Shown: positions 6,059 to 25,486, numbered from the stretch's first letter. The stretch: 32,000 bases of DNA from an archaeon (GCA_041657425.1 JBBABY010000004.1:60001-92000); one strand, 5' to 3'. Numbers and translations: made by a program. Notes: generated by a model from the letters alone, not told the origin.

Positions 6059-9000
6059 TTACTGATAATTAATATTATTTATTATTAATGTGGTATTATT
6101 TACTTGAACTGTTTGGCCAGGAGTAATTGTGTAAGTTCCATCTATATTTGTAGAACTTGCAGAAGTGTTTAATGTTCCGCTTGTTTTAACTGTAATAGTC
6201 ATAATTCCTGCAGGGACCTTCCCAGAAATATTTAATTCAACTACGTTTCCAGTAATTTTTGCAGTACCGCTTGTTATATTTATAGTTGCGTCTTTATCTC
6301 CAGTTGCAAATTTAACAGTTCCACTTAATTTCTTTTCTTGTAAATTCATAGTTATTGTTTCTCCAACTACGCCTACCTTGGTCTGTCCTCCGGCAATTCC
6401 TGCATCAACTGCAAAGGTTCCGCTAGTTATTGTTAGACTTACTGAAGTTACATTATCGGCTACAGTGCTATTTGTAACTGAATTACTAGTAACTGTATTT
6501 CCTGGATTGTACCACAATGTAAAGTTACTATTATTGAAATTAAAACACATTGTATTTGTTTGTATCCCGTTCATCATGTTTGTAACTGTGCTTGTTTCTT
6601 CTTTTGAAAATGTACTTAGATTATTTACTGTTAAGTCTCTTGAAATTCCATATATATAATTATAACTTCCGTTTCCAACTGGCATTTCAGGAGTTACATT
6701 AAATTTCATTGATGATTTTGAAGACATCTTTAATTGATATGCTATTCCTTTAGTATTATCATTTAAATTTAAAAATGCAAAAATTGTGTCTCTTTTATTT
6801 GGATTAGTTAATGTGTTTATTTTTCCATTTGATATATATTCTATTAAATAATCACTTGTGGCTAATGCTTGTATTGGCCTTATATCTTTGAAAGTTATAC
6901 TGCTATGTGTTGCTGGTATTGTTAATATATAACCATCTTGAACAGTAGTCCAGTCATTATAGTTTGAAATTATATTTGTAATCCTTGCAGGTCCTGATCC
7001 AATTCCGTTCTTGAATGGCACACCTGTGTAATTGTAATAGAATGCATTTGTTGGATTTGTAAAGAAAATATTCTTTTTGAAATCTGCATGGGCAGAATTA
7101 TTGTAGTAATCTAATAGTTTTTTACTATCGTCAATTTTTTGTACACTATATGTTGTTGTTTTGGTATTTGAATTATTACTTAATTTATCTATAGTTACAA
7201 CATATGTTCCTGGAGTATTAATTTCTTTAATTGATGAACTTGTACTTAGATTAAATTTCCAAGAATCTACTAAAAAGTTATCTCTAGTAAATATGTCTTT
7301 TGTAATACCCTCATTTAGTTTGCCATAAGTTTTTGCATTAATTATAAATGAAGAAACTGTATCTCCATAATATATTTCCATAGTGGTTAAATATTGCTTT
7401 AAGAACTCTGCAATTATCTTTTTATCTGCTGGAGTTGTTGAAGCAATTCTTGTCTCTAATTTGTTTTCACTTCTTAAGAATGAATCAACTGTAAATTGAT
7501 AAATGGTTCCAACTGTATTTACATTATTATCACTAACTGTCTTTACAAGATTTGCAATATTTGTTGTAGATAAATCTGCATTTGAAACAACTGTGATTTC
7601 TATTATTGTAAACTTTCTTAACTCTACAGGAACTGTTTCTAGTATTCCTTTTAATTGTTGTAAATATGTATTTGGATCTGCAGGTTGTGCGAAAGGCACT
7701 TTTGCAACTTCTGCTTCTATTGCGTTTCTATCTAATGGATTTTCATCTACTAGATAAGGATTTGCTGCAACTTTGTTATTTTCTTTTCTAAAGTTGGTTC
7801 CATCTAATTGTATGGTATTATCTGCCATATATAAATCTGCTTTCTTTGACATTGCAATCCTTAATTGATCTTGGTCACAATATACTCTTCCATAATCGCA
7901 AGTGTTGTGATTAATCTCATCTGCATTATATGTGAATAATAATCTATTAAATCCAAATTTGGAAAAATTATCTTCTCCAGTAAATCCTAACTTATTATTT
8001 CCTTTTGGATCGTAACATTCTCCTTCTCCTAAAGCTTGACTATTACTAAAGAATTCAGGGAATTGATTTTCTATTGTAACAGTTACATCCACTGGAGTGG
8101 TGCTTGGGACTGTGCTTGGAGTTTCTGGTTGTTTACCATCTAAGGTTGGTGCACTAGTATCTTCTGGTAATTTATCTAAATAACCTAACCATTGAAGATT
8201 ATCTTTTAAAACAATTTCTTGCTCTAATTCACTTGCACTTAATCTTGGTGTGGAATAACCAACTGCAAGCATTGCTTTAAGATTAATTGCATTACCTAAA
8301 TCAAAATAATCTTTTCTTATGTTAGTTACTGTCTTTGCTGCACTTCTATTATAATCTGTTCTTAATGTCTTTTCATTAATTTCTGGATTTCTTCTAACTT
8401 CTATTGACATGATTTCGGTAGTTTTACCATCTATCATTCTATAAGTTTTCTTTGGTTTAAGATCGGCATTAACATCTCCAATTGAGAAAAATTGAATATC
8501 TCCAACTTTTAATTCATTTGGATTTAATACTTTTAAATTGATTAATGCATAACCCGCATCATAACAAGTATTAACTACTAATAACTTCTGTGGTTTTGAA
8601 TCTATTCCTGAGAAATCAAATTCTGTAGGATTAACAGTTATACAATCTTCAGGTAAAATATCTACTGGTCTGTTTACAATTACAGAAATATCTTTAACAT
8701 ATGTATATTCTTCTATAGTGTCGTCATTTGGTTTTGCACTCATTGCTATCTTGTATTGTCCAAGAACTTGTGCGCCTTGTAAACCTAATAATTTACTTTC
8801 TCCTTTCTTAATTATCATTTCTGATTCTGTAGTTATTGTTACTCCTGCTAAAGCATTAAATTGTAATGCTAATTCTTCGTAACAATTATTTTTAATTTGC
8901 ACTTGTGCTGATTGACAACCGAATTGCCCATTTTGGGAGAAACTTGAATTTGGATAACCGTTCATGTTCTCTCTGAAATCATTATATGGAAACTGGTTAT

Positions 9001-12000
9001 AAAATTGAGGATTTATTCCATTTGGTGCAGATAGATTTGTTGCATAATAACTTTGTGGTGGGGTTCCGCTATTTTGGTATTGATTACTATTTAACAAACT
9101 AGTATAAGTTTGTGTGTTTGATACACTACCATACCCTAACATCCCATATGCTTGGCAATATGGAACAACTATTGGAGTGCTTGGTGTATCAATACAACTT
9201 GAATAATTATTTAAGATAACCTTTGGTTTATGCTGTGATTCAATGATATCTATTCCATTTACATTTGGTCTATTTGAAGATAATTTAATTATTGGTGCTG
9301 ATACTCCACTTTTTGCTTTACTATTTACTTTAAATATTAATTTTACATCTGCGGTCTTTCCTGCAACAATTTTATTTAATACTTCTATCTTTTCATCAAG
9401 TTCTAATTTCTTTTCAGAACCCGAAACTACAACATAAAAGTCACCTAACTTCTTTGTGTTTTTATAATCTGTACTAATAAATATTCTTCCTAAATCAGTT
9501 GGAACTTCATCAACTGTACAAGTGTTCTTTAATTTTATTGAGTATTCTAAATCATTTGTTGATTCAACTCTTAATGTGGTTTCTTCTGGATCAATGGTCA
9601 AACAATCTGTACTGTCTACACCATTACCAAATGTTATTCTTATTGTTAGCGGAATTTCTACTACCCAAGTTTTACCAAGAGTTGGCTCATTAACACTTAA
9701 TAATAAACTTCCTTTGATTACTTTTTGTGTCATTAGGTCAATACCGTTTTCTGTTAACTTAGTTGAAATCTCTAAACCAACTTGAGAATTTGGTTCTAAA
9801 GTTACGCCTTGAGAATTACTTGTAATCTTTATATATTCTGATTCTATATTTGATTTTACATTTGTAATTGTTAATGGTAACACTGTATTATTCATTAAAA
9901 TAATATTTGATTTATCTGAATAAGCTTTTGATATATCTAATTGTATCTCTAACTTTTCAGGAATTGTAGAAATTAAATTTTCTGTAACTAAAAGTTTAGT
10001 TGTGCTTGTTCTATACCCTTGTTTTCTTACTGTTATTTCAACTGTATCATTTACATTTGTGGAAGGAAGAGTGAAAACATATGCTCCTTCTTTATTGGTT
10101 TTTCCATCAATTATAGGTTTTGTATTTATTCTTACAAATACACTTGCATCAACTAAATTTAAATTGGTGTCACCAGTTACTCCAACAACCATTACGTTTG
10201 GAATATATGGCACAATTGTTTTTGGTAAAATATCAACAGTCAATTGTTTTGAAGGTTTTAAATCAAATAATATCTTCTTTGCAAATATTGTGTCTCCATT
10301 TGAAAGAATAGTTATTGTTAATTCATCACTAATATCATTTACTACACTTAAATCAACTTCTCCATTAACTGTTCCGTTTGCTAAAATATTTCCTAAAGGA
10401 ATGTTTGAGAAATCAGTATCAGTTATTGGATAATCTCCACCTGAAGTTATTGTATAACTATTTAATTTAATTGTTTGACCTGCAGTTGTTATTATCATTA
10501 CTGCATCTGTTGCTGGTTTTTGTAAATTTAATCTAAAGTTAAATTTATAATCTGTTCCGTCTTTTGCTGTAAACTTATCAATTACTCTTTTTTCTAAACC
10601 AGTTGTTTTTTCTTTAAATGAAAATGAATAGCAAACTCCATTGTCACAACCTGTTGAATCTCCAACAGAGATTGCTAATTTTTTTGCATAAGCATAAAGT
10701 GCTTGCTTATTTACTGAACTTACGCTTGTTCCTAAAACATTATCTTGCGGATTTCTTAAAACTGAAGAACCTTGTTGATATTCTGCTCTAAAGAAAATTG
10801 CTTGATTTGAAGTTGCGGTGTCTGTTACAACAATATCTGCATCAATAATATATGACCCTTCTAAAGGGTTATCGATTGTTACATTAAACCACTTTGCATC
10901 TTTTCTTACAATTGAAATTAAATCTTTTGATTCTCCAAGACAAGGAGTGTAATTTATAGATCCAAGAACTTTACTTCCTGCATATCTTATTTGTTTAATA
11001 TAAACTGAATCTTCTGAAACGGAATGTGTTTTACTATCACAAATCTCTCCTTCTCCTGTTCTTATATGCGCTACTGCTTTTAAATATTTTTTATCTACAT
11101 TTAAAATAAATCTTGCAGTTGCTGATTGCCCAGGACCAACGCTAGTTAATTGATCTCCATTACTTGCAAAATATCCTATAAATTCTATATTTGCGGAACT
11201 TGAAATACTTGTTGGGATTACAATTGTTTCTTGTAACATGCTTTCTGCATCTACTGAATATTGCTTAGAAATAATTCTTGTTCCATCTTCTTTTTCTATT
11301 ACAAAATATACTGACTTGTCTGCTCTTACAGGAATCACTGCAAGACCTGTTTCATTTGTCTCTGTTGTTTTTTCGGGCATTTCTTTATTTTTAGAAGCAT
11401 CATAAACTTTTATTGTTGCTTGTACTGGTGTTCCGTCTGCTTCAATAATTGTTAAATTATAAGTACCTTGACCAATTGCAACTACTACGGAAAGATCAGT
11501 TGCTTCTCTTTCTTTAACAATAAAATTATTTGACTTGCCTGAAAATTCTCCAGTTATTGCTTCTGCAAAATAAGTGGTGTTGGGATCTAAATTTGAAATT
11601 GTGATTCTGCCATAAACGTCTGTTGTTACAATCTTAACAACACTATTATCTAAAGCATCCCAAATTTTTACTGTTGCATACTCTATTGGTTGCACATCTT
11701 TATCTACGACTCCAACATTAAGAACGCCGGTTGTTGATTGTTCCATACTTTTTAATTGTATTTCTAAAATGTTTGCAGAAATACTTATTGTTTGAGTTGA
11801 TAATAAATATCCATCTTTATCTAATGTTAAAGAATAAGAAACATTTTCTTTAATTGCAAATTGTACATACCCAGTTTCATCTGTTAATTTTGTATCTATT
11901 ATTGCTGCATTCTTTGATAACTTTGCAGTTACTCCTTCTAAATAATTTCCTGTTGTTTTGTCTTTAACTTTTATTTTTATAAAACCAACAACATCTTTCT

Positions 12001-13012
12001 TTAATTTTATTTCTTGAGAATTTAACCCATTAGTAATTTGCTTTGCAACTAATGTCCCGTTTTGATAATCTAATTCTGAGACTCCTGAATAAATACCAAT
12101 TGGATCAGAAATTATTATTTTATATTGCTTTGAAACTACCACTAATTCTGAGGTGAAAATTCCATTTTGATTTGTTTGACCATCTTGTACTTTCTTTCCG
12201 AATATATCATAAATTGTTACTGACATATTTGGAAGTGGTGGATTTGGTAAATCTTTATCTTTAACAGTTACTATTAATGTCGCGTAATTATTATTTTCAC
12301 TAAATGTTATTTCTCCTGTTGTCCCAATATCTGAAATATTTACTTCGTAATCGTTTCTTCCTGCGACATATACTTCTAAACTTCCACAGTTCTTTGGAAC
12401 ATTATTTAAAGTATATTCTCCAGATGTTACTATTACTTCTTTTTCAAAATCATTAGTTGTACAACTAAATGTAACATCTAATTCAGAAGTTAATAATGAA
12501 CCTGACTGTGTCTTGAATGAAATTGTTTTTGTGGTTGTGTTTTGTGTTCTTTCTAAATTTACTAAATATCCACCTTCTTTTTCTGGAATTATTGAAATGA
12601 ATTCTTGATTATTTGTTAACATATATACACTATCGACTAATTTCAAATCATAGATTTTTGTTTTATCTAGGCCTTCTAAATAAACATATCCATCTTTGTC
12701 GGTTAACAAATTACGTGGTTGATCATCTAGTGTTGCTTTAAGAGCAATTTCAGAAAGTGAATTTGAAGTATCATCTACAAATCTTATTGTAGTTCCATTT
12801 GGTTGATCTTTAATTACAAATGAGGTTAATAATAAGAAAATTATTAATGCAAAAAGTGCAAGAATTATTACTGAAAATATAGGAAATGTTGGAATTCCAT
12901 TTTTTTCTAAAGGATCAACTAACTTATATAAGTTAATTCCTTTTTCTTCAAGATTATCAAGCATCTCGAAATACTTGTCTTCTAGATTATAATAGAATTC
13001 TTTTAAACCCAT
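6059..13012 (-). CDS. Giant N-terminally anchored surface protein, paralog B (2317 aa)
   Basis: Uninterrupted 6954-nt ORF, ATG start. N-terminus MGLKEFYYNLEDKYF...KNGIPTF plus a hydrophobic helix (about aa 43-66). CarboxypepD_reg/PEGA-like repeats, e.g. IKIKVKDKTTGNYLEGVTAKLSK...TDETGYVQF...YSLTLDKDGY. Same domain order as paralogs A and C. Q/N/Y-rich insert, P/T linker, and a C-terminal T/G/S-rich beta-type module. Confidence 0.9.
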   Translation of the reverse strand: MGLKEFYYNLEDKYFEMLDNLEEKGINLYKLVDPLEKNGIPTFPIFSVIILALFALIIFLLLTSFVIKDQPNGTTIRFVDDTSNSLSEIALKATLDDQPRNLLTDKDGYVYLEGLDKTKIYDLKLVDSVYMLTNNQEFISIIPEKEGGYLVNLERTQNTTTKTISFKTQSGSLLTSELDVTFSCTTNDFEKEVIVTSGEYTLNNVPKNCGSLEVYVAGRNDYEVNISDIGTTGEITFSENNNYATLIVTVKDKDLPNPPLPNMSVTIYDIFGKKVQDGQTNQNGIFTSELVVVSKQYKIIISDPIGIYSGVSELDYQNGTLVAKQITNGLNSQEIKLKKDVVGFIKIKVKDKTTGNYLEGVTAKLSKNAAIIDTKLTDETGYVQFAIKENVSYSLTLDKDGYLLSTQTISISANILEIQLKSMEQSTTGVLNVGVVDKDVQPIEYATVKIWDALDNSVVKIVTTDVYGRITISNLDPNTTYFAEAITGEFSGKSNNFIVKEREATDLSVVVAIGQGTYNLTIIEADGTPVQATIKVYDASKNKEMPEKTTETNETGLAVIPVRADKSVYFVIEKEDGTRIISKQYSVDAESMLQETIVIPTSISSSANIEFIGYFASNGDQLTSVGPGQSATARFILNVDKKYLKAVAHIRTGEGEICDSKTHSVSEDSVYIKQIRYAGSKVLGSINYTPCLGESKDLISIVRKDAKWFNVTIDNPLEGSYIIDADIVVTDTATSNQAIFFRAEYQQGSSVLRNPQDNVLGTSVSSVNKQALYAYAKKLAISVGDSTGCDNGVCYSFSFKEKTTGLEKRVIDKFTAKDGTDYKFNFRLNLQKPATDAVMIITTAGQTIKLNSYTITSGGDYPITDTDFSNIPLGNILANGTVNGEVDLSVVNDISDELTITILSNGDTIFAKKILFDLKPSKQLTVDILPKTIVPYIPNVMVVGVTGDTNLNLVDASVFVRINTKPIIDGKTNKEGAYVFTLPSTNVNDTVEITVRKQGYRTSTTKLLVTENLISTIPEKLEIQLDISKAYSDKSNIILMNNTVLPLTITNVKSNIESEYIKITSNSQGVTLEPNSQVGLEISTKLTENGIDLMTQKVIKGSLLLSVNEPTLGKTWVVEIPLTIRITFGNGVDSTDCLTIDPEETTLRVESTNDLEYSIKLKNTCTVDEVPTDLGRIFISTDYKNTKKLGDFYVVVSGSEKKLELDEKIEVLNKIVAGKTADVKLIFKVNSKAKSGVSAPIIKLSSNRPNVNGIDIIESQHKPKVILNNYSSCIDTPSTPIVVPYCQAYGMLGYGSVSNTQTYTSLLNSNQYQNSGTPPQSYYATNLSAPNGINPQFYNQFPYNDFRENMNGYPNSSFSQNGQFGCQSAQVQIKNNCYEELALQFNALAGVTITTESEMIIKKGESKLLGLQGAQVLGQYKIAMSAKPNDDTIEEYTYVKDISVIVNRPVDILPEDCITVNPTEFDFSGIDSKPQKLLVVNTCYDAGYALINLKVLNPNELKVGDIQFFSIGDVNADLKPKKTYRMIDGKTTEIMSIEVRRNPEINEKTLRTDYNRSAAKTVTNIRKDYFDLGNAINLKAMLAVGYSTPRLSASELEQEIVLKDNLQWLGYLDKLPEDTSAPTLDGKQPETPSTVPSTTPVDVTVTIENQFPEFFSNSQALGEGECYDPKGNNKLGFTGEDNFSKFGFNRLLFTYNADEINHNTCDYGRVYCDQDQLRIAMSKKADLYMADNTIQLDGTNFRKENNKVAANPYLVDENPLDRNAIEAEVAKVPFAQPADPNTYLQQLKGILETVPVELRKFTIIEITVVSNADLSTTNIANLVKTVSDNNVNTVGTIYQFTVDSFLRSENKLETRIASTTPADKKIIAEFLKQYLTTMEIYYGDTVSSFIINAKTYGKLNEGITKDIFTRDNFLVDSWKFNLSTSSSIKEINTPGTYVVTIDKLSNNSNTKTTTYSVQKIDDSKKLLDYYNNSAHADFKKNIFFTNPTNAFYYNYTGVPFKNGIGSGPARITNIISNYNDWTTVQDGYILTIPATHSSITFKDIRPIQALATSDYLIEYISNGKINTLTNPNKRDTIFAFLNLNDNTKGIAYQLKMSSKSSMKFNVTPEMPVGNGSYNYIYGISRDLTVNNLSTFSKEETSTVTNMMNGIQTNTMCFNFNNSNFTLWYNPGNTVTSNSVTNSTVADNVTSVSLTITSGTFAVDAGIAGGQTKVGVVGETITMNLQEKKLSGTVKFATGDKDATINITSGTAKITGNVVELNISGKVPAGIMTITVKTSGTLNTSASSTNIDGTYTITPGQTVQVNNTTLIINNINYQ

Positions 13013-13158: not shown

Positions 13159-14886
13159 TTACTCGTTTGGGGGGGTGCAAGGCGAACCTCCACCTGGCGC
13201 AACATAATTTTGACATTTCCAAGCATTTCCTGTAAAATCGACATTCCCTAAACTTGTTGGCCCTAAATAATTATTACCAGTTACTGATAACTCGCTCCAA
13301 ACCCCATTTGGTGGGAAATAAAAAGGCGTATATCTGTCTTCTAAAACTACATTTATTGTTACAGGAAGATTTTGATATTGCTTTCTCACTCTGTATCTTG
13401 GGTCCGTCTCTATAAATTGTAAGATGATTTTCGCGAAATCCATTTCTGAACAACTGAGATCATAGGACGCGCCTGTTGCTTCACCAGTAGCTACAATTGG
13501 TGGAGATAGATTTGTATTTGCATTATACCAAGTAAATAATCCTGGCATTTCCCAAAGCATTTTAGATCTTTGGGTTTCTGAATTTAGAAATAAACCAAGA
13601 CCTCCTGAAACTCCTGACATATCTGATAACTCTGAAAATCTAGTTTGACTAAAACTTGCAGGTGCAGGTCCCGGAGCGTCCCCAAAAACGTCTTTGGTTC
13701 GTTTTTTATCCATAATTACTTCTACTCCAAAAATATTTAAATCGGAAACTGTGTCGCCTTGCATAACTAAACCGTTATTGTAAGTCATTGGGTCTATTCT
13801 TGAAGAAATGTTTTCATTTAAAACTGCAGTGTATAGTTTTTCAAATTGCGATTTTGGATCAGAAGTATCAAATAAATTATAGTTGCCAAAAGGTGGGAAA
13901 ACTACTCCGGAAAGTGCTGCAGGAGTTGGAGTTGCAATTGTTTGATCGGGAATGTTTTGGCATTGAGAAGCAATTCCTGTAGTTGCTGGGGTTGCAAAGA
14001 AATCTGTTCTTGGTGCACAAGTGCCTGGATCACAAAAACCAAGTCTTGCTTGTTCCAGAGTATTATGAATTTCTGGATTGAATAATCCTGTGTCGCTTTC
14101 TGCAACTGCCGGGTTATCTGATCTTTCTGCATCACGACTATGAGCAATATTTCTTGCAACTCTAAATGCTTGAAAACCACGCCATGGCATGTATATCTTG
14201 TATATCTGTCTGCTTAGAACTGGTCTTTGAATAACTTGATTACTTTTATATTTTAAAACTGTGACCACTGGTAAGATTTCATAATCTACATCAGAAAGCT
14301 GCGTAGTATCAAGTGTTAAATAAAATGAACCAACGCAATTATTATCATCAGTTTCACAATCAATAACATCAATTTTCTTTCCACCGTCTTCAAACATTTT
14401 CACAACAACATTTTCAAAAGTGTTTTCGTCATCTATGTCTGTTGGATCTCCATTTGAGCCAACCTCATACCCCGTGTGTTCTTCAATTGTAATATTATAC
14501 CCTGGAGGATTTTCTGAATATTGAAGATTAAATATTAATCCTTGAGCAAAGTAAGATGCAAAGTTTTGTTCAAAGAATGTGTCTTGAACAAAACTATCTA
14601 CAAAATAATTCCAATTTTGATCCATTTGTTTTCTAGTTAAATTAAACGAAGTTTTTGATTTACTTAATTCCCATTGCGATCTTAAGACAATTAAAAATGT
14701 ATTAAAAGCATCTGCTCTTGCAATATCTCCTACAGTCATCAAGTCGGACATTGATGATTGATCTTGAATAAGAGAGAGATATGTTTCTTCTGTATTTATC
14801 ATATTAAAAATAAGAGCTAGAGATATAGATACAAGTAGCAAAGAAATTAATGCAGTAAATAAGGTAAATCCTTTTTGTGATTTCAT
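13159..14886 (-). CDS. Large pilin-like or pseudopilin-like protein with a class III (prepilin-type) signal peptide (575 aa)
   Basis: N-terminus MKSQKG/FTLFTALISLLLVSISLALIF: short basic leader, Gly at -1, then an uninterrupted hydrophobic helix. This is the prepilin peptidase substrate pattern, here without Glu at +5. The rest is hydrophilic and has 10 Cys in apparent pairs (CETDDNNC, CDPGTC, ...KCQNYVAPGGGSPC), which fits an extracellular protein. Confidence 0.65.
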   Translation of the reverse strand: MKSQKGFTLFTALISLLLVSISLALIFNMINTEETYLSLIQDQSSMSDLMTVGDIARADAFNTFLIVLRSQWELSKSKTSFNLTRKQMDQNWNYFVDSFVQDTFFEQNFASYFAQGLIFNLQYSENPPGYNITIEEHTGYEVGSNGDPTDIDDENTFENVVVKMFEDGGKKIDVIDCETDDNNCVGSFYLTLDTTQLSDVDYEILPVVTVLKYKSNQVIQRPVLSRQIYKIYMPWRGFQAFRVARNIAHSRDAERSDNPAVAESDTGLFNPEIHNTLEQARLGFCDPGTCAPRTDFFATPATTGIASQCQNIPDQTIATPTPAALSGVVFPPFGNYNLFDTSDPKSQFEKLYTAVLNENISSRIDPMTYNNGLVMQGDTVSDLNIFGVEVIMDKKRTKDVFGDAPGPAPASFSQTRFSELSDMSGVSGGLGLFLNSETQRSKMLWEMPGLFTWYNANTNLSPPIVATGEATGASYDLSCSEMDFAKIILQFIETDPRYRVRKQYQNLPVTINVVLEDRYTPFYFPPNGVWSELSVTGNNYLGPTSLGNVDFTGNAWKCQNYVAPGGGSPCTPPNE

Positions 14887-14922
14887 AATATTTATTTCTT
14901 ATTTATTATATAATAGATAATA

Positions 14923-14952
14923 AGAATAAAAGAAAAAGGTTTAAAAAAGGGT
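14923..14952 (-). terminator. Oligo-T runs directly after the paralog A stop
   Basis: The minus strand reads ACCCTTTTTTAAACCTTTTTCTTTTATTC after the TAA. An A/T-rich TATA-like stretch (TTATATAATAAA) follows, ahead of the pilin-like gene. Confidence 0.3.
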
Positions 14953-15420
14953 TTATGCAACCTTTGGAATTGCATAATCATCATAAAGAGCATAACCACT
15001 TGATGGAATTACTACTTCACAAATTCTATTTATTTTTACGTCATGAGTAAATCTACTATTTAATGGTTCAAACTCAATATTTGGACCAAATTGATGAATT
15101 ACATAATCGATTCCATCTTTTTTCCCAACATATAATATTGCATGTGATGGTTTTACACAATCTATCCCTTTTGTTATTCCAATTGTTATAATTGCTCCAG
15201 GAACTAAATTTTTCTCGAAATCAACAATACTATCTGTTTTTGCGTCCCAAACTACTTTATTATTTTTTCCAAGTTCCCATGCATCTCCATTTACATATTG
15301 TCCAATTCCAGGATAATTTTTTTCTGCAACTTGCTGTGCAAATGTAGAACAATAATCTGCAGAAATTGCAGAAACATCTTCACATGCAGATTTTGCAGGA
15401 GCTTTTGGAAATTTACAAGA
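14953..15420 (-). other. NlpC/P60-CHAP-like papain-fold domain at the C-terminus of paralog A
   Basis: ...ADYCSTFAQQVAEKNYPGIGQYVNGDAWELGKNN...NLVPGAIITIGI...KPSHAILYVGKKDGIDYVIHQFG. A Cys at a helix start (codon 15349..15351) is followed by an aromatic residue. There is an xGDAWE motif and a PGAII strand. His lies 69 aa after the Cys (15142..15144) and a second His 16 aa further on (15094..15096). Order and spacing match the Cys-His-His/polar triad of NlpC/P60 and CHAP enzymes. Called by eye only. Confidence 0.5.
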
Positions 15421-18400
15421 TTCATAACTTTGTAATTTCGGTTCTTTCTCGTTATACATATTTACTTGTATTTGTAATAAATCTGCAGAGACTTCTACTG
15501 CTGAACCTGGAGTTTCTGGATCTGTTACTGTTGAACCAGGATTTTCTGAATCTGTTTTTTCAGTTGTGTCTTCTGGAGTTTTTTGTGGAGGAGTTCCTTG
15601 TAATAATTCTTCTCTATGTTCAGAAGTTAATATTTCTTTTATTTCTTTATTATTTTCATAAACTATTTTATTATCTTCTGCAATAGATGGAATTTCATTA
15701 ACTATTTTAAAGTTAAAATTATTAGTTTTTTTATCAATCTCAACTTTATACCATGTTCCGTTTCTAAATTCAGTAATTGGCATCGAACTATCTGCTCCAT
15801 ATGCTAAACCATTATACTGCCCAGTCTCTGCAGAATATTCTAGTAATCTATTTCCTAAATAATTAGATAACACAACAACTCCAATATCTAAACCAATTTT
15901 TCCTGTGGTTCTACCGAATTTAGTCCATTTAGTTACCCCGGCAGATGCTAACCCTTTTGCAGATAATTTAACTTCATCTATGTTTTTTACAAGATCATCA
16001 GTTACATCATATAATCCTGCGGTATTTTTTGGACCCGCTTTTATATTTTCTAAACTATTTATAGTATTTTCAGCACCTTCTTTTGATTTCGTAAATGCAT
16101 CTATTTCATTATCTAATATTTTTAGTTTCTTTGTTTTATTTATCTTTGAAGAACTCCATCCACTCTTTTCTAATTTTGCTTTTGCAGCAAGTGATTTTTC
16201 TAATTGGTCTTCAGCTAATTTCTGAGTACCTTTTGCTTCTCTTAAATAATCATCAACAGTTTCTGCAGATAAAGTTTTAGGAATTGTAGTTGTGATTGTT
16301 GATGGTGGTGCAAGATTAGTTCCTAACAATTTATCTACATCATCAATTGCAGAATTTATTTTTGGTGCATCAGTTGTTATTTGTTTAGTTAATACATCAT
16401 CTAATTGATATTCAGTTGGTGACTTTAGGGTTGCACCACTTTTCATATTTGTTTTAAGTGTATCTATGTCTGTAATTGCGCTTGTTGTTTTTGTTTGTGC
16501 TGTAATTAAATCATCATAAACTTGATCTGTTCCTGCTGCTGGTGGCGTTGGATAATCTGCTTTTATCTTTGCATCTATTGTTTTTAAATGAGTATCTAGT
16601 GCTGCTTTAGAATCATCTGTTGCTTTTACCAAATCATCAAAATTTCTTTTGGGCATTATGTTTGTTGTTGATGTTCCACCTGATTTTGTAAATTGATTTA
16701 ATCTATCAGTGAATAACTTTTTATCTGGCGTAATCCAATTCCCTGGGGTATCATAACTTCCAGTAGTAATTATTCTTTCAAATTCTGTTAATTCTGCATT
16801 AGATAATGCATTAAATTTAATCATATCTAATTTCCCAGAAGTTGTTATTTTACTAAATAGGCTTCTAACTGCAGCGTCATCTGACATTCCTGTGGCTACA
16901 TTAACTCCTGGAGCAAATCTAATATCTGTTGGTGCAACATATGGTGCGCCTGTAGGTTGACTCACATAATTTTGAAGATACCTGTATTGATTATTTAATT
17001 GTCCTTCAAATAATACTTGTGTAGATGGTGTAAGCCCTTTTGTTGTGGTTGTTGTTGTTGAACTTATTCCTGTTGCATTTATTTTTGTTGTTGTTGGATA
17101 TGTTGGATTTGGATTTGGGGTAGTTTGAGTAATCGGATCTAAATCTGCACCCATAATTTTATCTGAAATTGCTATTCTGTCTGCAGCGGGTTTATTTTCT
17201 ACTATACTTGCACCTACTGGCCCTGCAACCATTGCAACATTTTTTGGAGAAAATACTTTCCCAATTAATTCTCCAACATCGCCAGTGATTTCTTTTGTAA
17301 ATCCTTTAATTATTTCCCAAATTGGAATTTTTATTTCGGTCTCTTCTAGATACATTGCTCCTGCAGGAAGACCACAACCTGGTGCACAATTCCAAGCAAT
17401 GTCTGAAATAATTTTTGCTTGGCCTAAAATTGGTAATAAATTCCAAAGAGTATCTACTCCAGCAGTTGCTAATGCACAAGGAGTTAAACATCCTGCTAAA
17501 AATGTGCCAGCTCTTTTTGCGGCTCTATCATTATTTGCTTTTATTTCTGATTTAGTTTTTTCAAAGTCACATGCCTCTGGTTTCTTGAAAATGGTTAGTT
17601 TGTCTCCAACGTTTTTATTGTATTTTTCTAAAGTGCTACAATATGCTTCTTTGTCTTCTTTATTGTACGCTTTATCCCAATCTACATATGCATAGAAATT
17701 ACTTTCAGTTTTTGCTTTGTCTTTTCCTAATACTTCCATTTCCTTTTGAGTTTGTTTTAGAAGGTCTTGAGGGGTTATTCCATAGTTTAATAATGTAATA
17801 TTTGTGTCGCTTTTTCTTATTGAATTAATTTTACCAACTGTTGAATATTTGCTTTCTGCAGTTATTACTAATTGCTTATTACTCCAGTTTGCAATTTCTG
17901 AAATGTCTCCTTGTATACAAATATTAAAGTCTGTACCTTTGTCTTTTTCTAAAATCATTGAAAAAGTATTTTCTGATTCTTTTCCTTGGTAATTAAATTT
18001 AGTTTTTACTCCAGGTAATTCTTGAGTTTTAATTTCTATTTGCTCAGTAATTGCAGAAGTTGCGGTTACTACTGTACAGGTACTTGTTGGAAGTAACTGA
18101 AGCTTATCTGTTTTTGCTTTTAGACTTAATGCCCCAAAGTCTTTATCAAAAGATAAAATTAACATATAATTCCTATCTTTAGAAATACAAATGTCTGCGG
18201 GATTACCTTCGATTATGTTTTTAATATCCTTTGCTGTTTGATTAATAAATTCGCTTGGATAATTAACGTCTTCATTTTCTGTGGGTATTCCAAACTTATT
18301 ATTTATAATTACATTTATTGTTTCTGCTTGAGGATCTTTTGGTTCTCCAGGATTCTTAAAATAAAGTTTAGCAATTGCTGTTTTATCTTCAGCAATTTCT

Positions 18401-21400
18401 CCAACAGAAATATTTAATTGACTAAATTTCTTTTGTTCATTTGTCTTTAATTGGAATCTGTCTTCTGTATTAAATACGCCTTTTGAAACTGGAAGACCGA
18501 AATCTTTATCCCCACTAATTACTGTTAACCATGTGTCTCTTGTATTTGTTTTAGAAAGTGCATTATCTATATCTTTTGGCAAATACATCCTTATATTTTC
18601 TATACTCTTCTTACATTGTTCAGTTTTATTTGCATCAATTGTTACAAAGAAATATGCATTTTCTGCATCAAGTTTTGTTTGGCCTTTTGTTGCAACTGAC
18701 CCGTCAATTGTTATCTTATATCTTCCACAACCATTTATTTTATTATCAATATGTATTACCACTCCGCCAGCTATTGAAAGCCCGCCTGTTGTTGCCCCAA
18801 CATTTGGCCTTACCATAGCCCCTTTTATTGTTGGAAACTTTGTTGCTTCTTTATTGTTTTGAAGCACAGATAAAACTGTATTATCTGATAATGAATCATT
18901 CTGAACATATAATGGAATATTTCTAAACTTTGCTAATTGCTCAGAAGTTAATAACTCTGAAATTGGACAACTGCCATTTATTGCAGAAGTCATAGAACAA
19001 TTTGTTTGATCTACTTCGTCAGCAACTTGTCTTGATGCATTTATTACCATTGTATGCATTTCTTGTATTTTCTCAGCAATGAACTCTGCAGCATTAGAAC
19101 TATCACAATATCCTTCTTGTTTACAATCTGTAACAATTATTGGGAATGTAAAATTTGCAGTTTCGCTATCACTATCTGCTGCTTCTCCACAAATTTTTAC
19201 ACTTACATCTTCTTCTACTCTTTTAAAATCTGCTGTAATATCTGGATTTATTTCTTCAACTTCTAGTGAAAACGAAAGTCTATCAGAAGTTACAACACTT
19301 CCAGGAGTATTGTTTAATGGCGCGCCAATTAATCTTAATGATTGATCTATTTTTGCAGGGAAATATTCCAGAGGTTTTACTTTTAGAATATATGGAACCG
19401 TTTGACCTGAAGCAATAAACCCTGTAGGACTCTGAGGAATCAACCATAATTGAGTATTTTTTCCAAATGCTTGATCATAAAGATTAGGAGAAATATTTGC
19501 ACTAGGGTCAAATGTAATATAACCAACTGGATCAGCACATTGATTTGTAACATTGATTAACTTAGATTTTTCTTCTCCAACTTTTGCATAGATGTATATT
19601 TTCTTTTGATCAACTTTTAAACACCCAGCTGATGAAAATCTAAAGTCTACAGTGAATCTTGCTTCTATTGGTTCCTTAACCCCTTTTGCATCTGCTGTAA
19701 CTTTATAGTAGAGTGTTGCATAAGTTGCTTTATCTACTTTTCCTTCATATCTTATAATTATTTTTTTTGATTGACCAGGTTTTATTTCTTCAAAACTTAT
19801 AGGTTCAATTTTGTCTTGGATATTTGAAGGTAGTTTTTCTTCAAATCTTGAAATCTGTATATTTTTTACTGGATATTTACCATTATTCTTTAATAAAAAC
19901 ATTGTTTGATTTGCAGCAGGCGTTACATCCATTTCTTGAGTTAATGAAACTAAAGATAGTGGAGGAGACACACTAATAGTTTTTGAGAAATCAACTAAAT
20001 CTAAATTAAGTTTTGTGTTCTCTAAAGCATAATATGAGTTTCTCCAGGCAATTTCAAATGCGTAACTCTTTGTTGATTTTCTTTCTTTATTATTTCTTAT
20101 TGTTATTGTATAATCTGTTATTTCTTCATTAGGTTCAATTGTTATTGTTGGAAGATCAATTTCTATATTTTCGTCTTTCTTAATTGTTGTGCCTTTTGCT
20201 TTTAATAATTCTGGAGTGATTATTAATGACTTTGAACAATTATTTACGATTGTCGCAGTTATTTCATTTTCTGAACCTTCACTTATTCCAACATAAGCAT
20301 AGATTGCTAATGGTTTGATTTCTAGACAATCGTTCTTTACTATTCCTCTATAATAATTAATAGTTATCTCTTTAGCTACTTGCTTGTTTCCTACAAAACC
20401 ATAAATGGTTAAAATTGATTTCCCTGTTTTGAAATTTATCTTTGGATCCACTGTTGAAAAGATTTCTATAACTTCTGGAGCGCCAGGATTTAATGCAATT
20501 GGTAATTGTGTTTCTGTTGTTAGTCCAATTACTTTATCTATCTCTGTTATCGTGTATGTTAAATCTTTAACTTGTATGCTTCCTTTGTTAACAAGAGTTA
20601 TCTTCTCTGACTCTTGACTAATGCTTTCTCCAAAACTTATATCTATACTATCTGGTGCGTAGATTAAACCGGTGTCTGCAATTGTTAATTGTTTTGTAAA
20701 TGAAATATAACCTGGAGCACTAACTTCCATATTTGGTTTTGCACTTGAGAAGTTTTGATTAATAATATATTTTCCGTTCTTTCCTGTTTTTGTACTGGAA
20801 ATCGTATCTCCGAACTCGTCTGTTAATTTTACTAATGCATTATTAATTGCAGTTTTGTTATCTGCATCTTGTACATCTATAATTATTGGAGAATTATATG
20901 CAATGATTTCTGGAACTGTAATTATTAGATTTCTCTTTTGTTTTATTTCAAAACTTAATCTTTTTTCTATAACTTTACTATTAAATGTACTTTTTATATC
21001 TAAGTAAGTTATTCCTGTATCTTTTGCTTTAAATAATATATATTGTTTTCTGTTCACGCCTGATTGTATTACAAATACTGAAGAACTTAATTTTGTATCT
21101 TGTGAATCAAGACTAGAGGTTGGAAACAATTCTGTTTCTTGATAACTTATTAAACCAACTATTGGCTTACTATTGTCAGTTTGTGCTTCTATTGTTAGTT
21201 CTCCATTTAACACACTGTAATAACTCAATTCAAGAAGATATAAGTCATCTTTTACTGCAAAGAAACTTTCTTTTGAATAATCAAAATTATCTTTATCTAA
21301 AAATTTGTAATCAACACAAAGATTATTAGAGCACTCTGCTGGACTCTCTAAAATGTTTAAGGATAAATCTTTTGTTTCTGCATATAAGCTTTGTCGTGAA

Positions 21401-23814
21401 GAATTATTTTTTGAAGTTCCAAGTATCGTGTCTTCAGGATCTCTGTATGTTGAACCAGTAACATCACACCATGCTCTATACTTGATTGGCATTGTGCCGA
21501 TTTCACTTGCTTTAACTTTTAACATTACTTGCTTGTTTGTTAATGTACTACTTGGCCAATATAATTCTAACCATTTATTTAATTGATTTGGTTGTCCAAC
21601 ATTATCTGTATCAATTGATTGTTCTCCAGAATTATAAGTTGTAGAATATTTGTAGGTTATTGTGTCTGCTTTAAATCCGGTTATTCCATAAGTCATGTTT
21701 TCAGAATCAGACTCGAAATATTCTCCTGCTCTGAAATGCACTCCGCAACTTTTTGCATCAATTGGGAGTTGTAAATCAAAGACAAGATAGTAATCTGCAT
21801 CTTTACTTAGAACACTTGTTGGATTATTATATATATCTCTTAATTCTATAAATGTAATTACTGGATTATAATCTATAACTGATGGTTTAAGAGCTACTGA
21901 TAATTTTTCGCTATCTCCAACAACTGCAGAAACAATTGTTGTCGCGCCATTTTCATCTGTATATTCTATTAATAAATCCCTATAGCCTTGAGTATTGAAT
22001 GACAATGGAGTTTCATCAAGACAGGTGTCTGAAAGAATCTCTCCAAGTTTTGATTTTACAACAACACATCCGTTGGTTACACCATTTCCATGTAAGTCTT
22101 TTAATTCTAAAGTAACTATCTTTGATGCATCGTTAATTGTTAAAATTACTTTATTGTCCTTAAATGGATCAATAGTTATTTCCTTAGAAGCATTAGCATC
22201 TCCAACAACCCCTACAACATTATATTTTTCTCCTGATTTGGTATAGACTGAAGTAAATCCTGTAAGATCAACTTGAAGTGGGCCTAAGCCTATTGGAACA
22301 AACTTTCCTCCTAATTCTTTGTATACTAAAACATTCGCTTTCGAGATTGGATTATTTACTCCATCATAAACATAAATTGAAAGCTTGTAACTATTATCTG
22401 TAGTAATTTTTTCTAAACTAATTTCTAAATCATTTGATAAAGAAATATTCACATATTGTTGTAAACAAAGATATCCATCTTTACAAGCAGTAACTACATA
22501 TTCTTGATTTTGATCAAGACCATTAAATATTACTTGCCCATCCATTTCTGTGGTTTTAGAAGATAAAAGATTTCCAGTTAAACTGTATAATGAAATGCCT
22601 ACTTGATCTAATGGGCCAACTAAGTTTTCTGTAACTTTAACTTTTAAATCAGAACTTCCTGCAATCATCTTTATAGTAATTGTTTCTTCGCTTTTTAATA
22701 ATCTATATGTTACATTGTACGTATCACTGTCATAAATTCTATAGCCTTCTTTAGTTACTACAAAACGAATTGCTTGCCCAGCATTTAATGTAAATGTAGT
22801 TTTACCTAATTTTGTAATCTCGCTACCAATTATTTCTCCAACAGCATTATAAATGATAACATTACAATCATCAAGTAAATCCCCGTTTTGTGTTGTTGTT
22901 ATTAATATTAATCTTGATTGCGTGCCTGCTAATTGAGCAGTGTTGTCGTATTCTAAATTTATAGTTCTAGTTTCATTAGAACTTGTTAATTTTATTGTTT
23001 GAGTTAATGTTTCATAACCGTCGCTAACAATTGTTAAAGTTATATCTTTTCCTATAGGAACCCCTGTAAAATCAATCTCTCCCAATGTATTTGGTTCTCC
23101 AATCTTTTCTTGAGCTTGACCATTGATTTTATAATCTAATGTTGCTGAGTATTTACTTACAGATTTATTAGTTTGGCTATCTGTAACTATTAATTTTAAA
23201 TTGCCAGTCTCTATTAATTCATTAAATTGTATAACTAATGGACCATCTCCGGAATACATAAATGGTTTCTCATAAACTTGAAATCCTTCTTTTGTTGCTG
23301 TGACTGTATAATCTTTTCCCGGACTTATTGCAATTCTTCTCTTTTCTCCATTACTTATTATTTCATTAAATTTAGCTTTATCATTTAAATCTCTTATTGA
23401 AACTTGCACATAATTTAATTTATTTCCTGAATAATCCATTATGCTAAACTCAACTGTTGTCTTTGTTGCAAAGTTGATTACTAAAAAAATGATTATTGCT
23501 AAAATAATTATTGAAAGACTTGTAACGAAAGCAAAAGAAGGAATTCCTTTATCTTCAAGAAAATCATTTAGTTTGTTTAAGCCTATTCCTTTCTTACCTA
23601 ACCAATCAGAAAATGCAAAATACCTATCTTCCAAACCTCTATAGATTTTGCCAAAAATATTTCCCTCTTGCTGTTTATCCATTTCATTATCTGAAAAATC
23701 ATTATTAACTTCAGAATAATCTTCAATTTCTTGATTATCAGAAATCTCTTGATCTTCTAAATCAGAAAAATCCTCTTTTTTTGTTTTCTTTGGTTTTGCT
23801 TTTTCTTTTGCCAT
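14953..23814 (-). CDS. Giant N-terminally anchored surface protein, paralog A (2953 aa), with a C-terminal papain-fold (NlpC/P60-CHAP-like) domain
   Basis: Uninterrupted 8862-nt ORF, ATG start. A charged/acidic leader of about 54 aa, then IFGKIYRGLEDRYF...DKGIPSF plus a hydrophobic helix (about aa 94-114). Six CarboxypepD_reg/PEGA-like repeats, e.g. LKVKVTENLVGPLDQVGISLYSLTGNLL...DGQVIF...EYVVTACKDGY. Shared central module, two-Cys Ig-like repeats, hydrophobic Gly/Ala/Cys segment, Thr-run linker, helical region, P/T/E linker, and a Cys/His domain. Confidence 0.9.
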   Translation of the reverse strand: MAKEKAKPKKTKKEDFSDLEDQEISDNQEIEDYSEVNNDFSDNEMDKQQEGNIFGKIYRGLEDRYFAFSDWLGKKGIGLNKLNDFLEDKGIPSFAFVTSLSIIILAIIIFLVINFATKTTVEFSIMDYSGNKLNYVQVSIRDLNDKAKFNEIISNGEKRRIAISPGKDYTVTATKEGFQVYEKPFMYSGDGPLVIQFNELIETGNLKLIVTDSQTNKSVSKYSATLDYKINGQAQEKIGEPNTLGEIDFTGVPIGKDITLTIVSDGYETLTQTIKLTSSNETRTINLEYDNTAQLAGTQSRLILITTTQNGDLLDDCNVIIYNAVGEIIGSEITKLGKTTFTLNAGQAIRFVVTKEGYRIYDSDTYNVTYRLLKSEETITIKMIAGSSDLKVKVTENLVGPLDQVGISLYSLTGNLLSSKTTEMDGQVIFNGLDQNQEYVVTACKDGYLCLQQYVNISLSNDLEISLEKITTDNSYKLSIYVYDGVNNPISKANVLVYKELGGKFVPIGLGPLQVDLTGFTSVYTKSGEKYNVVGVVGDANASKEITIDPFKDNKVILTINDASKIVTLELKDLHGNGVTNGCVVVKSKLGEILSDTCLDETPLSFNTQGYRDLLIEYTDENGATTIVSAVVGDSEKLSVALKPSVIDYNPVITFIELRDIYNNPTSVLSKDADYYLVFDLQLPIDAKSCGVHFRAGEYFESDSENMTYGITGFKADTITYKYSTTYNSGEQSIDTDNVGQPNQLNKWLELYWPSSTLTNKQVMLKVKASEIGTMPIKYRAWCDVTGSTYRDPEDTILGTSKNNSSRQSLYAETKDLSLNILESPAECSNNLCVDYKFLDKDNFDYSKESFFAVKDDLYLLELSYYSVLNGELTIEAQTDNSKPIVGLISYQETELFPTSSLDSQDTKLSSSVFVIQSGVNRKQYILFKAKDTGITYLDIKSTFNSKVIEKRLSFEIKQKRNLIITVPEIIAYNSPIIIDVQDADNKTAINNALVKLTDEFGDTISSTKTGKNGKYIINQNFSSAKPNMEVSAPGYISFTKQLTIADTGLIYAPDSIDISFGESISQESEKITLVNKGSIQVKDLTYTITEIDKVIGLTTETQLPIALNPGAPEVIEIFSTVDPKINFKTGKSILTIYGFVGNKQVAKEITINYYRGIVKNDCLEIKPLAIYAYVGISEGSENEITATIVNNCSKSLIITPELLKAKGTTIKKDENIEIDLPTITIEPNEEITDYTITIRNNKERKSTKSYAFEIAWRNSYYALENTKLNLDLVDFSKTISVSPPLSLVSLTQEMDVTPAANQTMFLLKNNGKYPVKNIQISRFEEKLPSNIQDKIEPISFEEIKPGQSKKIIIRYEGKVDKATYATLYYKVTADAKGVKEPIEARFTVDFRFSSAGCLKVDQKKIYIYAKVGEEKSKLINVTNQCADPVGYITFDPSANISPNLYDQAFGKNTQLWLIPQSPTGFIASGQTVPYILKVKPLEYFPAKIDQSLRLIGAPLNNTPGSVVTSDRLSFSLEVEEINPDITADFKRVEEDVSVKICGEAADSDSETANFTFPIIVTDCKQEGYCDSSNAAEFIAEKIQEMHTMVINASRQVADEVDQTNCSMTSAINGSCPISELLTSEQLAKFRNIPLYVQNDSLSDNTVLSVLQNNKEATKFPTIKGAMVRPNVGATTGGLSIAGGVVIHIDNKINGCGRYKITIDGSVATKGQTKLDAENAYFFVTIDANKTEQCKKSIENIRMYLPKDIDNALSKTNTRDTWLTVISGDKDFGLPVSKGVFNTEDRFQLKTNEQKKFSQLNISVGEIAEDKTAIAKLYFKNPGEPKDPQAETINVIINNKFGIPTENEDVNYPSEFINQTAKDIKNIIEGNPADICISKDRNYMLILSFDKDFGALSLKAKTDKLQLLPTSTCTVVTATSAITEQIEIKTQELPGVKTKFNYQGKESENTFSMILEKDKGTDFNICIQGDISEIANWSNKQLVITAESKYSTVGKINSIRKSDTNITLLNYGITPQDLLKQTQKEMEVLGKDKAKTESNFYAYVDWDKAYNKEDKEAYCSTLEKYNKNVGDKLTIFKKPEACDFEKTKSEIKANNDRAAKRAGTFLAGCLTPCALATAGVDTLWNLLPILGQAKIISDIAWNCAPGCGLPAGAMYLEETEIKIPIWEIIKGFTKEITGDVGELIGKVFSPKNVAMVAGPVGASIVENKPAADRIAISDKIMGADLDPITQTTPNPNPTYPTTTKINATGISSTTTTTTKGLTPSTQVLFEGQLNNQYRYLQNYVSQPTGAPYVAPTDIRFAPGVNVATGMSDDAAVRSLFSKITTSGKLDMIKFNALSNAELTEFERIITTGSYDTPGNWITPDKKLFTDRLNQFTKSGGTSTTNIMPKRNFDDLVKATDDSKAALDTHLKTIDAKIKADYPTPPAAGTDQVYDDLITAQTKTTSAITDIDTLKTNMKSGATLKSPTEYQLDDVLTKQITTDAPKINSAIDDVDKLLGTNLAPPSTITTTIPKTLSAETVDDYLREAKGTQKLAEDQLEKSLAAKAKLEKSGWSSSKINKTKKLKILDNEIDAFTKSKEGAENTINSLENIKAGPKNTAGLYDVTDDLVKNIDEVKLSAKGLASAGVTKWTKFGRTTGKIGLDIGVVVLSNYLGNRLLEYSAETGQYNGLAYGADSSMPITEFRNGTWYKVEIDKKTNNFNFKIVNEIPSIAEDNKIVYENNKEIKEILTSEHREELLQGTPPQKTPEDTTEKTDSENPGSTVTDPETPGSAVEVSADLLQIQVNMYNEKEPKLQSYESCKFPKAPAKSACEDVSAISADYCSTFAQQVAEKNYPGIGQYVNGDAWELGKNNKVVWDAKTDSIVDFEKNLVPGAIITIGITKGIDCVKPSHAILYVGKKDGIDYVIHQFGPNIEFEPLNSRFTHDVKINRICEVVIPSSGYALYDDYAIPKVA

Positions 23815-25476: not shown

Positions 25477-25486
25477 TGCTAATAAC

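Follow-up and report, generated by a model that had tools for sequence, protein, structure and literature searches.

The locus and the giant surface protein

The window analysed here, a 32,000-nt stretch of archaeal DNA (GCA_041657425.1, JBBABY010000004.1:60001-92000) with about 30% G+C, carries all of its sizeable open reading frames (ORFs) on the minus strand, to which every window coordinate given below refers. Among them is the gene of a giant surface protein of 2953 residues (14953..23814, with the stop codon at 14953-14955), and the subject of this work is the predicted catalytic domain at its C-terminal end, hereafter the tip (residues 2776-2953, 178 residues in all; 14956..15489). The tip is a divergent new family within the NlpC/P60-CHAP superfamily and a member of neither of the two Pfam families, and it may serve as a cysteine endopeptidase or amidase directed at a partner cell's wall. 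The DNA is that of an archaeon, a possibility for which an earlier note on it had allowed: the product of the window's ppsA gene is 100% identical to a protein named in NCBI from a Candidatus Pacearchaeota (DPANN) metagenome-assembled genome, followed by relatives that bear the names archaeon, Diapherotrites, Woesearchaeota or Nanoarchaeota.

The ORF is intact and contains the peptide strings quoted in the earlier note. Its translation opens with a charged segment (residues 1-94; 23533..23814), predicted to be cytoplasmic from the Lys-rich N-terminus, in which the motif IYRGLEDRYF..KGIGLNKLNDFLEDKGIPSF is common to all three giant proteins of the window. The sole transmembrane helix follows (residues 95-117; 23464..23532), with a Kyte-Doolittle peak of 3.06; beyond it, no hydropathy window of the protein exceeds 1.53. 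Because one helix comes after a Lys-rich N-terminus and none comparable comes later, residues 118-2953 are most simply placed outside the cell, and the tip is probably extracellular and distal; the conserved Cys pair and the beta-sandwich domains of the stalk support the same topology. The description of the protein as membrane-anchored was, in this respect, a reasonable one.

Pfam recognises only beta-sandwich modules in the stalk. A CarboxypepD_reg-like domain at residues 981-1047 (20674..20874) lies above threshold (PF13620, E = 1.7e-11, 44.7 bits against a cutoff of 32.3), and several others lie below it. Towards the C-terminal end, motif comparison delimits a conserved pre-linker module (KWTKFGR...PITEFRNGTWYKVEI...TSEHREELL; residues 2629-2738; 15601..15930), whose motifs recur just ahead of the tip in related proteins (P0121, P0122, P0124-P0126) and loci (L009-L014). 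It is followed by the Pro/Thr/Glu-rich linker TPPQKT...SAVEV, read from the sequence at residues 2741-2775 (15490..15594), which stands ahead of the tip at the far end of the protein, as had been stated. We also observed a conserved, mildly hydrophobic stretch rich in Ala, Gly and Cys (AGTFLAGCLTPCALATAGVDTLWNLLPILGQ...NCAPGCGLPAG) at residues ~2165-2230 (window ~17130-17320); it is present as well in the orthologues P0123, P0125, P0126 and L003.

The tip domain and its conserved residues

The start of the domain is given by the confident AlphaFold model, which opens with a long helix at residue 2776. The earlier note had correctly placed a domain at the C-terminus, but its size of about 135 residues is too small, since the model gives 178 residues. 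The domain is further supported by Foldseek and by the family hidden Markov model, which finds one copy only within the window (E = 1.2e-57).

Conservation was counted in an alignment of 30 members sharing 22-59% identity with the window domain. Four positions are invariant in 30 of 30 sequences: Cys47, Gly98, His116 and Gly122 in domain numbering. The first of these, Cys2822 of the protein (15349..15351), is the predicted nucleophile; in the model it opens the helix 47-58, and it aligns with the Cys of the canonical NlpC/P60 domain of P0123. The predicted general base, His2891 (His116; 15142..15144), opens the strand 116-124 and aligns with the catalytic His motif of Tae2 (6win), of the Trichomonas NlpC/P60 enzyme (6biq) and of the NlpC/P60 domain of P0123. 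The predicted third residue of the triad, His2907 (His132; 15094..15096), lies within the strand 127-134 and is aligned with the IHA histidine of NlpC/P60; this position is occupied by His in 24 sequences, Gln in 4, Glu in 1 and Ser in 1, and is thus a polar His, Gln or Glu in 29/30. These are the Cys, the His and the second His nominated in the earlier note, whose codon positions are exact. Judged from the alignment, the Cys/His pattern exceeds chance. Since the residues of the dyad are invariant, the tip is likely to be a working enzyme, that is, an active cysteine hydrolase. In addition, two cysteines of the N-terminal extension of the domain, Cys2800 and Cys2811 (15382..15417), are invariant in 7/7 members of the giant-protein type and may form a disulfide.

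Predicted fold and relation to known families

With a 20-sequence alignment, AlphaFold modelled the 178-residue domain with high confidence (pLDDT 90.1, pTM 0.88), while the single tip sequence gave a pLDDT of 31.9, the model being confident only when the alignment is supplied. The layout of Cys, His and third residue in the model is papain-like, in the unpermuted order of NlpC/P60 and CHAP enzymes. Foldseek comparison with the PDB returned almost exclusively clan-CA enzymes in the top 35, and the same holds for nearly all of the top 30 in the viral library BFVD. The PDB list comprises the Ly7917 CHAP domain (E = 0.014), phytochelatin synthase, the NlpC/P60 protein 3h41 (probability 0.97, TMq 0.40, root-mean-square deviation (rmsd) 4.5 over 119 columns, E = 0.037), Tae2, glutathionylspermidine (Gsp) amidase, the phi812 CHAP domain, 3m1u (TMq 0.37), PlyC, cathepsins and the C39 domain of PCAT1. 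The BFVD list contains C51, NlpC/P60, CHAP and endolysin entries with probabilities up to 1.00 and TMq up to 0.54, among them a viral NlpC/P60 model (probability 1.00, TMq 0.43, E = 1.9e-3) and many CHAP lysins (probability 0.9-0.99, TMq 0.39-0.49). On these grounds a papain-like (clan CA) fold is very probable. The earlier note had proposed this fold of the NlpC/P60-CHAP type and had named two outcomes that would speak against it, the lack of a papain-fold match and the loss of the Cys or His residues among homologues; the lists are instead dominated by papain-like enzymes, and the nominated residues are conserved.

By sequence criteria, membership of the tip in the NlpC/P60 or CHAP families themselves is not supported. 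PF00877 gives no match to the window domain even when E values up to 10 are admitted, and it matches only 2 of 26 relatives, with a best, sub-threshold E of 0.013; as a control, the extra C-terminal domain of P0123 reaches 87 bits against the PF00877 cutoff of 23. CHAP (PF05257) matches neither the window domain nor any of the 26 relatives in Pfam. The weak Pfam matches found on the relatives include NLPC_P60, Peptidase_C92 and DUF1287, which we take to be NlpC/P60 or papain-like from their descriptions or by our own assignment to that clan, beside unrelated weak ones. The sole Pfam line on the window domain, DUF6310, was rejected: it spans only the segment after the Cys helix, with E = 0.006 and 17 bits against a cutoff of 27, and our literature search found no mention of it.

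Single-sequence searches were uninformative. Against the PDB, phmmer with the tip sequence gave a chance match only, and a word-indexed search of 5.8 billion proteins with the single domain gave nothing; the same search with a 20-sequence profile returned 5 proteins only. No match was obtained by tblastn of the tip against phage (50,697 records) and plasmid collections. When a profile was compared with the PDB, the two best entries were Tae2 (6win; E = 0.067) and the Trichomonas enzyme 6biq (E = 0.15), both alignments centring on a PG..I...H..YVG motif. Alignment by hhalign with the canonical NlpC/P60 domain of P0123 sets Cys against Cys, His against His and second His against second His in register (E = 0.0018, with a probability of only 15%).

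Compared with the NlpC/P60 family (PF00877, C40; BCE_2878 of Bacillus cereus, 3h41, and Trichomonas 6biq), the tip has the papain-like core in common: its Cys opens a helix, its His the central strand, and the third His lies on the next strand, without permutation, and its PG(D/A)(L/I)I...H(V)xxY(V/I)G...IH motif aligns in register. On the other hand, the tip scores below the Pfam threshold, superposes with a template modelling (TM) score of only ~0.4 and bears extra elements at both ends; moreover, its Cys and His are 69 residues apart as against ~54 in the canonical domain of P0123, because of an inserted G(D/N)A(W/C)...N..VW segment. Together with this insertion, the elements peculiar to the tip family are the long N-terminal helix, the Cys-pair hairpin and a C-terminal strand and helix. 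The CHAP lysins (PF05257, C51; Ly7917 5d74/5d76, PlyC and the hub CHAP of phage phi812) rank best in both Foldseek libraries and belong to the same class of Cys-His dyad geometry, and CHAP commonly stands as a module at the end of long phage tail or lysin proteins; yet the tip has no Pfam CHAP match, and these superpositions have E values of 1e-3 to 1e-1 and an rmsd often above 7 Å. Finally, Tae2 (6win), amidase effector 2 of the type VI secretion system (T6SS), is the best match of the tip in the profile comparison with the PDB and the ninth in Foldseek. It is a small NlpC/P60-like amidase that acts on the murein of another cell; however, Tae2 is a free protein injected by the T6SS, whereas the tip is tethered to a giant archaeal surface protein with no immunity gene, and the match reaches an E of only 0.07-0.11.

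Relatives of the tip

An exhaustive phmmer run over 1.84 billion cluster representatives identified 22 proteins with E <= 1e-3, of which 7 reached E <= 1e-10; one of the 22, P0139, was discarded as a low-complexity artefact. Scans of genome and metagenome contigs, for which the 7-sequence alignment A2 was used, the alternative alignment A1 being too diverse, contributed 14 further loci. All relatives that can be placed are archaeal, under the names archaeon, Candidatus Diapherotrites and Candidatus ainarchaeum, and P0143 adjoins genes for an archaeal histone and a Hef-type helicase-nuclease. The family is apparently restricted to archaea of the DPANN type, the only organisms in which we have encountered it so far.

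The relatives fall into three groups. The first consists of orthologous giants with the tip at their end (P0123, P0125, P0126 and L009-L014); P0121, P0122, P0124 and P0127 look like fragments of such giants. A second type of giant (P0132, P0136) has a 570-residue region in common with the second giant protein of the window. The third group is made up of small proteins of 150-260 residues, most of them with a signal or anchor helix, in whose neighbourhoods we found no wall-related partner genes. Two proteins carry a further catalytic domain behind the tip. P0123, a true orthologue of the 2953-residue protein (47% identity over 2169 residues, same gene order), continues after the tip into a canonical NlpC/P60 domain (Pfam, 9.8e-25), and P0136 into a YkuD L,D-transpeptidase domain (6.3e-16). 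Pfam did not bear out an SLT-like region suspected within the C-terminal part of P0136.

Two features of the neighbourhoods may be recorded here. Locus L020 contains two adjacent genes (2220-2882 and 2939-4735; 220 and 598 residues), both with signal peptides and each with a copy of the papain-like domain of this family. Secreted protease-inhibitor-like proteins of the Kazal/DUF333 kind are encoded near family members in L007 (584-958), L019 (3555-4169) and L021 (1205-1729), the last recognised only because its N-terminus resembles that of L019; the contexts, near P0136 and beside small members of 173 residues, are two unrelated ones, and the association may be a coincidence.

Constancy of the tip and its gene cluster

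The earlier note likened the tip to the exchangeable ends of polymorphic toxins or contact-dependent systems and suggested checking whether orthologues swap it for other domains. The check gives a uniform answer: every orthologue with a readable 3' end terminates in the same domain (P0123, P0125, P0126, L009, L010, L011, L012, L013, L014), while in L001 and L002 the limit of the locus falls exactly at the first helix of the tip. One locus at first resembles a tip-less variant. In L003 (GCA_035387745.1, DAOOON010000009.1; 17766-18963) the orthologous giant is split into an ORF of 2502 residues and one of 582 residues in another frame; tblastn shows that the tail of the giant continues in the next called ORF, which runs off the locus, consistent with a split gene, and the tip-less interpretation was rejected. 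The split would reflect a frameshift, an assembly error or a strain-level pseudogene. L001 and L002, whose ppsA protein is the same as that of L003, have a single giant gene of 3066 residues.

Downstream of the giant gene lies no small immunity gene but a conserved gene for a protein of 544-607 residues with a class III signal, 42-55% identical between loci. Because both the tip and this pilin-like gene are conserved in every orthologous locus seen, the analogy with polymorphic toxins fails. The tip rather appears, from gene order and sequence conservation, to be a fixed, conserved part of a surface-protein cluster composed of the giant, the pilin-like protein and two further giants.

In the window, the pilin-like partner has 575 residues (13159..14886), a class III (prepilin-like) signal MKSQKGFTLFTALISLLLV and weak N_methyl and ComGF matches. 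Its orthologues lie directly 3' of the tip-bearing gene in L005, L009, L011, L012 and L013, always between the two giant genes. We observed that the first ~40 residues, with the signal MKSQKGFTLFTALISLLLVSISLALIFNM, are near-identical across loci that otherwise share 42-55% identity. Next come the gene of the second giant surface protein (2317 residues; 6059..13012), part of the same conserved cluster, with orthologues (42-57% identity) after the pilin-like gene in L011 and L012, and that of the third (1863 residues; 339..5930), whose translation has Pfam beta-sandwich matches and the same N-terminal anchor design. The three giants share an N-terminal YxxLE(D/N)(K/R)Y(F/Y)... motif and an (I/M)P(S/T)F motif, then a single transmembrane helix and CarboxypepD_reg-like beta-sandwiches; as consecutive genes of such similar design, they look like parts of one surface apparatus. 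The C-terminal part of the 1863-residue protein (window ~590-740) bears a tandem (ATEPS)n / (ATEPP)n repeat after a Cys-rich stretch.

The order ppsA, low-molecular-weight (LMW) phosphatase, LemA, giant protein, prepilin-like protein of 544-607 residues, second giant is also found on related contigs, which were reached either through ppsA at 89% identity or through the tip domain; the gene order around the 2953-residue gene is kept in L001-L003, L005/L006 and L012. Several local features of the window were noted besides. The 66-nt spacer at 14887-14952 has T-runs directly past the stop codon and a TTATATAA box ~25 nt ahead of the next ATG, and resembles an archaeal terminator with a promoter behind it. 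The interval from ppsA to the LMW phosphatase (25099-25975) contains the gene of a SocA/Panacea-domain protein (162 residues, Pfam 6e-22) and an unannotatable ORF of 125 residues; in L001-L003, L005 and L006 the phosphatase directly follows ppsA, so the pair has the appearance of an insertion of two genes, perhaps a toxin-antitoxin module of the PanA type. At 30376-30996 the window has a gene for a GDSL lipase/acylhydrolase, where syntenic relatives carry a phosphoribosyltransferase gene.

Proposed function and alternatives

In the mechanism that we propose, the nucleophile would be Cys2822, which opens its helix; His2891, the first residue of the central strand, would serve as the base, and His2907 on the neighbouring strand would orient that base. 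The tip, placed behind a flexible Pro/Thr/Glu-rich linker, would end an extracellular stalk of ~2800 residues that one N-terminal helix anchors in the Pacearchaeota cell, and would act on a partner cell touched by the archaeon, in whose wall it would cleave peptide, isopeptide or amide bonds. The murein stem peptides of a bacterium would be the leading candidate substrate, and their cleavage would loosen the wall locally at the site of contact. A tethered cysteine endopeptidase or amidase that opens the partner's wall, with murein as leading substrate, is the best explanation available to us, and one we favour with modest conviction. What is shown above is the class of fold, the conservation of the residues, the architecture, the synteny and the taxonomic context; activity, topology, substrate and role are what we infer.

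The substrate is suggested by the homologues. A wall peptide is favoured because P0123 fuses the tip to NlpC/P60 and P0136 to YkuD; both are murein-acting families, and it is usual for wall hydrolases to have catalytic modules in tandem that differ in the bonds they cleave. That the substrate is a wall peptide of the partner cell appears, from these fusions, about evenly balanced with a slight inclination in favour, and that the wall concerned is bacterial murein rather than an archaeal envelope is a tentative suggestion, somewhat less likely than not.

Several findings weigh against this explanation. The tip finds no sequence or structure match at conventional significance: nothing reaches threshold in Pfam (searched to E = 10), NCBIfam, PHROGs or PADLOC, no Foldseek entry in the PDB or BFVD has E <= 1e-3 (the best being 1.1e-3 for a viral model and 1.4e-2 in the PDB), and the TM scores of the model are 0.3-0.54. 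Pfam recognises neither a wall-binding module (LysM, SH3b, PG_binding) nor SLT in the three giant proteins of the window, with no SLT match at E up to 1 in the proteins of 2953, 2317 and 1863 residues. Fusions with NlpC/P60 and YkuD amount to just two cases, two of the small members (L019, L021) have no obvious signal peptide, and the hosts of these archaea could themselves be archaeal.

This last point leads to the alternative that survives best, although we consider it unlikely. It retains the fold and the tethering but directs the tip at the envelope of an archaeal host, be it the pseudomurein isopeptide bonds of Methanobacteriales or S-layer or sheath protein. The pseudomurein endoisopeptidases PeiW and PeiP (MEROPS C71) are papain-like cysteine enzymes too, the tip family is distant in Foldseek from all murein-specific families, the related contig L015 is labelled as an activated-sludge metagenome, and the known DPANN hosts noted in PMC8204110 are archaea. 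Against it, the Pfam and Foldseek lists contain no C71 or transglutaminase-core match, both informative fusions are with the murein-acting NlpC/P60 and YkuD, and the giant Pacearchaeota proteins described in that paper bear murein transglycosylase domains. We also entertained, as a rather improbable proposal, that the tip is not a murein hydrolase and instead breaches or covalently engages the envelope of an archaeal host (pseudomurein, S-layer, sheath); for example, an acyl-enzyme intermediate could be resolved onto an amine of the host, so that the stalk becomes chemically tied to it. If true, DPANN-host attachment would thereby gain its first defined catalytic step, and the tip would be the founder of a DPANN-specific enzyme family.

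Alternatively, the tip could act on the archaeon's own surface, either in processing or release of the giant protein or its neighbours (autoproteolysis, maturation) or in remodelling of its own envelope. Such a role would agree with the strict conservation of the tip together with the cluster and with the flexible linker that adjoins it, and the small anchored or signal-bearing homologues of several DPANN lineages make a housekeeping role conceivable. The stand-alone homologues, however, indicate that the giant protein is not needed as a substrate, the NlpC/P60 and YkuD fusions suggest a substrate of the wall type, which these archaea are not known to produce, and no conserved cleavage motif was identified; we regard this possibility as improbable.

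Less probable still is a transferase, whether an LRAT/PLAAT-like acyltransferase or phospholipase or else a transpeptidase or transglutaminase, which would serve a covalent link to the partner or lipid uptake. The NlpC/P60 superfamily includes LRAT-like acyltransferases, DPANN archaea are generally regarded as lacking lipid synthesis, and phytochelatin synthase and glutathionylspermidine amidase, both acyl-enzyme formers, are among the PDB matches in Foldseek. LRAT-type proteins, however, are circularly permuted, with His before Cys, whereas the tip has Cys and then His; phytochelatin synthase superposes poorly (TM 0.25-0.34, rmsd 11-14), and no LRAT, PLAAT or transglutaminase match appears in the Pfam or Foldseek lists.

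The lack of a significant sequence match to any characterised enzyme would also suit a non-catalytic binding or structural cap with an incidental Cys/His pattern, but this is very hard to reconcile with a Cys and a His that stay invariant in 30 otherwise divergent sequences and that fall, in the model and in hhalign, at the exact positions of the papain-like dyad. An exchangeable toxin module, which a C-terminal enzymatic domain behind a linker on a very long surface protein and the additional tip domain of one orthologue (P0123) might suggest, has next to no credibility, being contradicted by the constancy of the tip in every orthologue readable at the 3' end, by the large, conserved pilin-like gene where a small, variable immunity gene would be expected, and by the absence of phage or plasmid copies in the tblastn searches.

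Relation to known systems and significance

The explanation that we favour, a tethered enzyme opening the wall of a partner, extends a known theme, since giant DPANN proteins with wall-degrading domains and archaeal peptidoglycan hydrolases are already known. PMC8204110 and PMC9723730 propose that the Pacearchaeota and Woesearchaeota reduced the most employ, against bacterial walls, extracellular proteins that reach 3000 residues and have murein transglycosylase domains. These murein lytic transglycosylase giants (fam00969) belong to the same lineage and size class as the window protein, are extracellular, and are proposed to bind the wall of a partner or to degrade it; they are defined, however, by an SLT glycosidase domain, which is not detected in the window giants, and the tip is a module of the cysteine peptidase or amidase kind. 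Homologues of peptidoglycan hydrolases are reported to be prominent in Nanoarchaeota (PMC12352652), and an analogous idea has been put forward for the giant proteins of predatory Omnitrophota (bioRxiv 10.1101/2023.11.21.568195). Our literature search found no paper mentioning both NlpC and DPANN. With the tips of polymorphic toxins and contact-dependent inhibition systems, the window protein has in common an enzymatic C-terminal module on a long surface filament, but its tip is conserved and has no adjacent immunity gene.

To the NlpC/P60-CHAP superfamily the tip would add a family that escapes current annotation pipelines altogether. It is predicted to be a small, expressible catalytic module of 178 residues at the outer end of a conserved surface apparatus, and it bears on the attachment of Pacearchaeota and their DPANN relatives to partner cells and on their access to these cells. 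Its substrate, be it murein, pseudomurein or protein, would tell whether these archaea attack bacteria or archaea.

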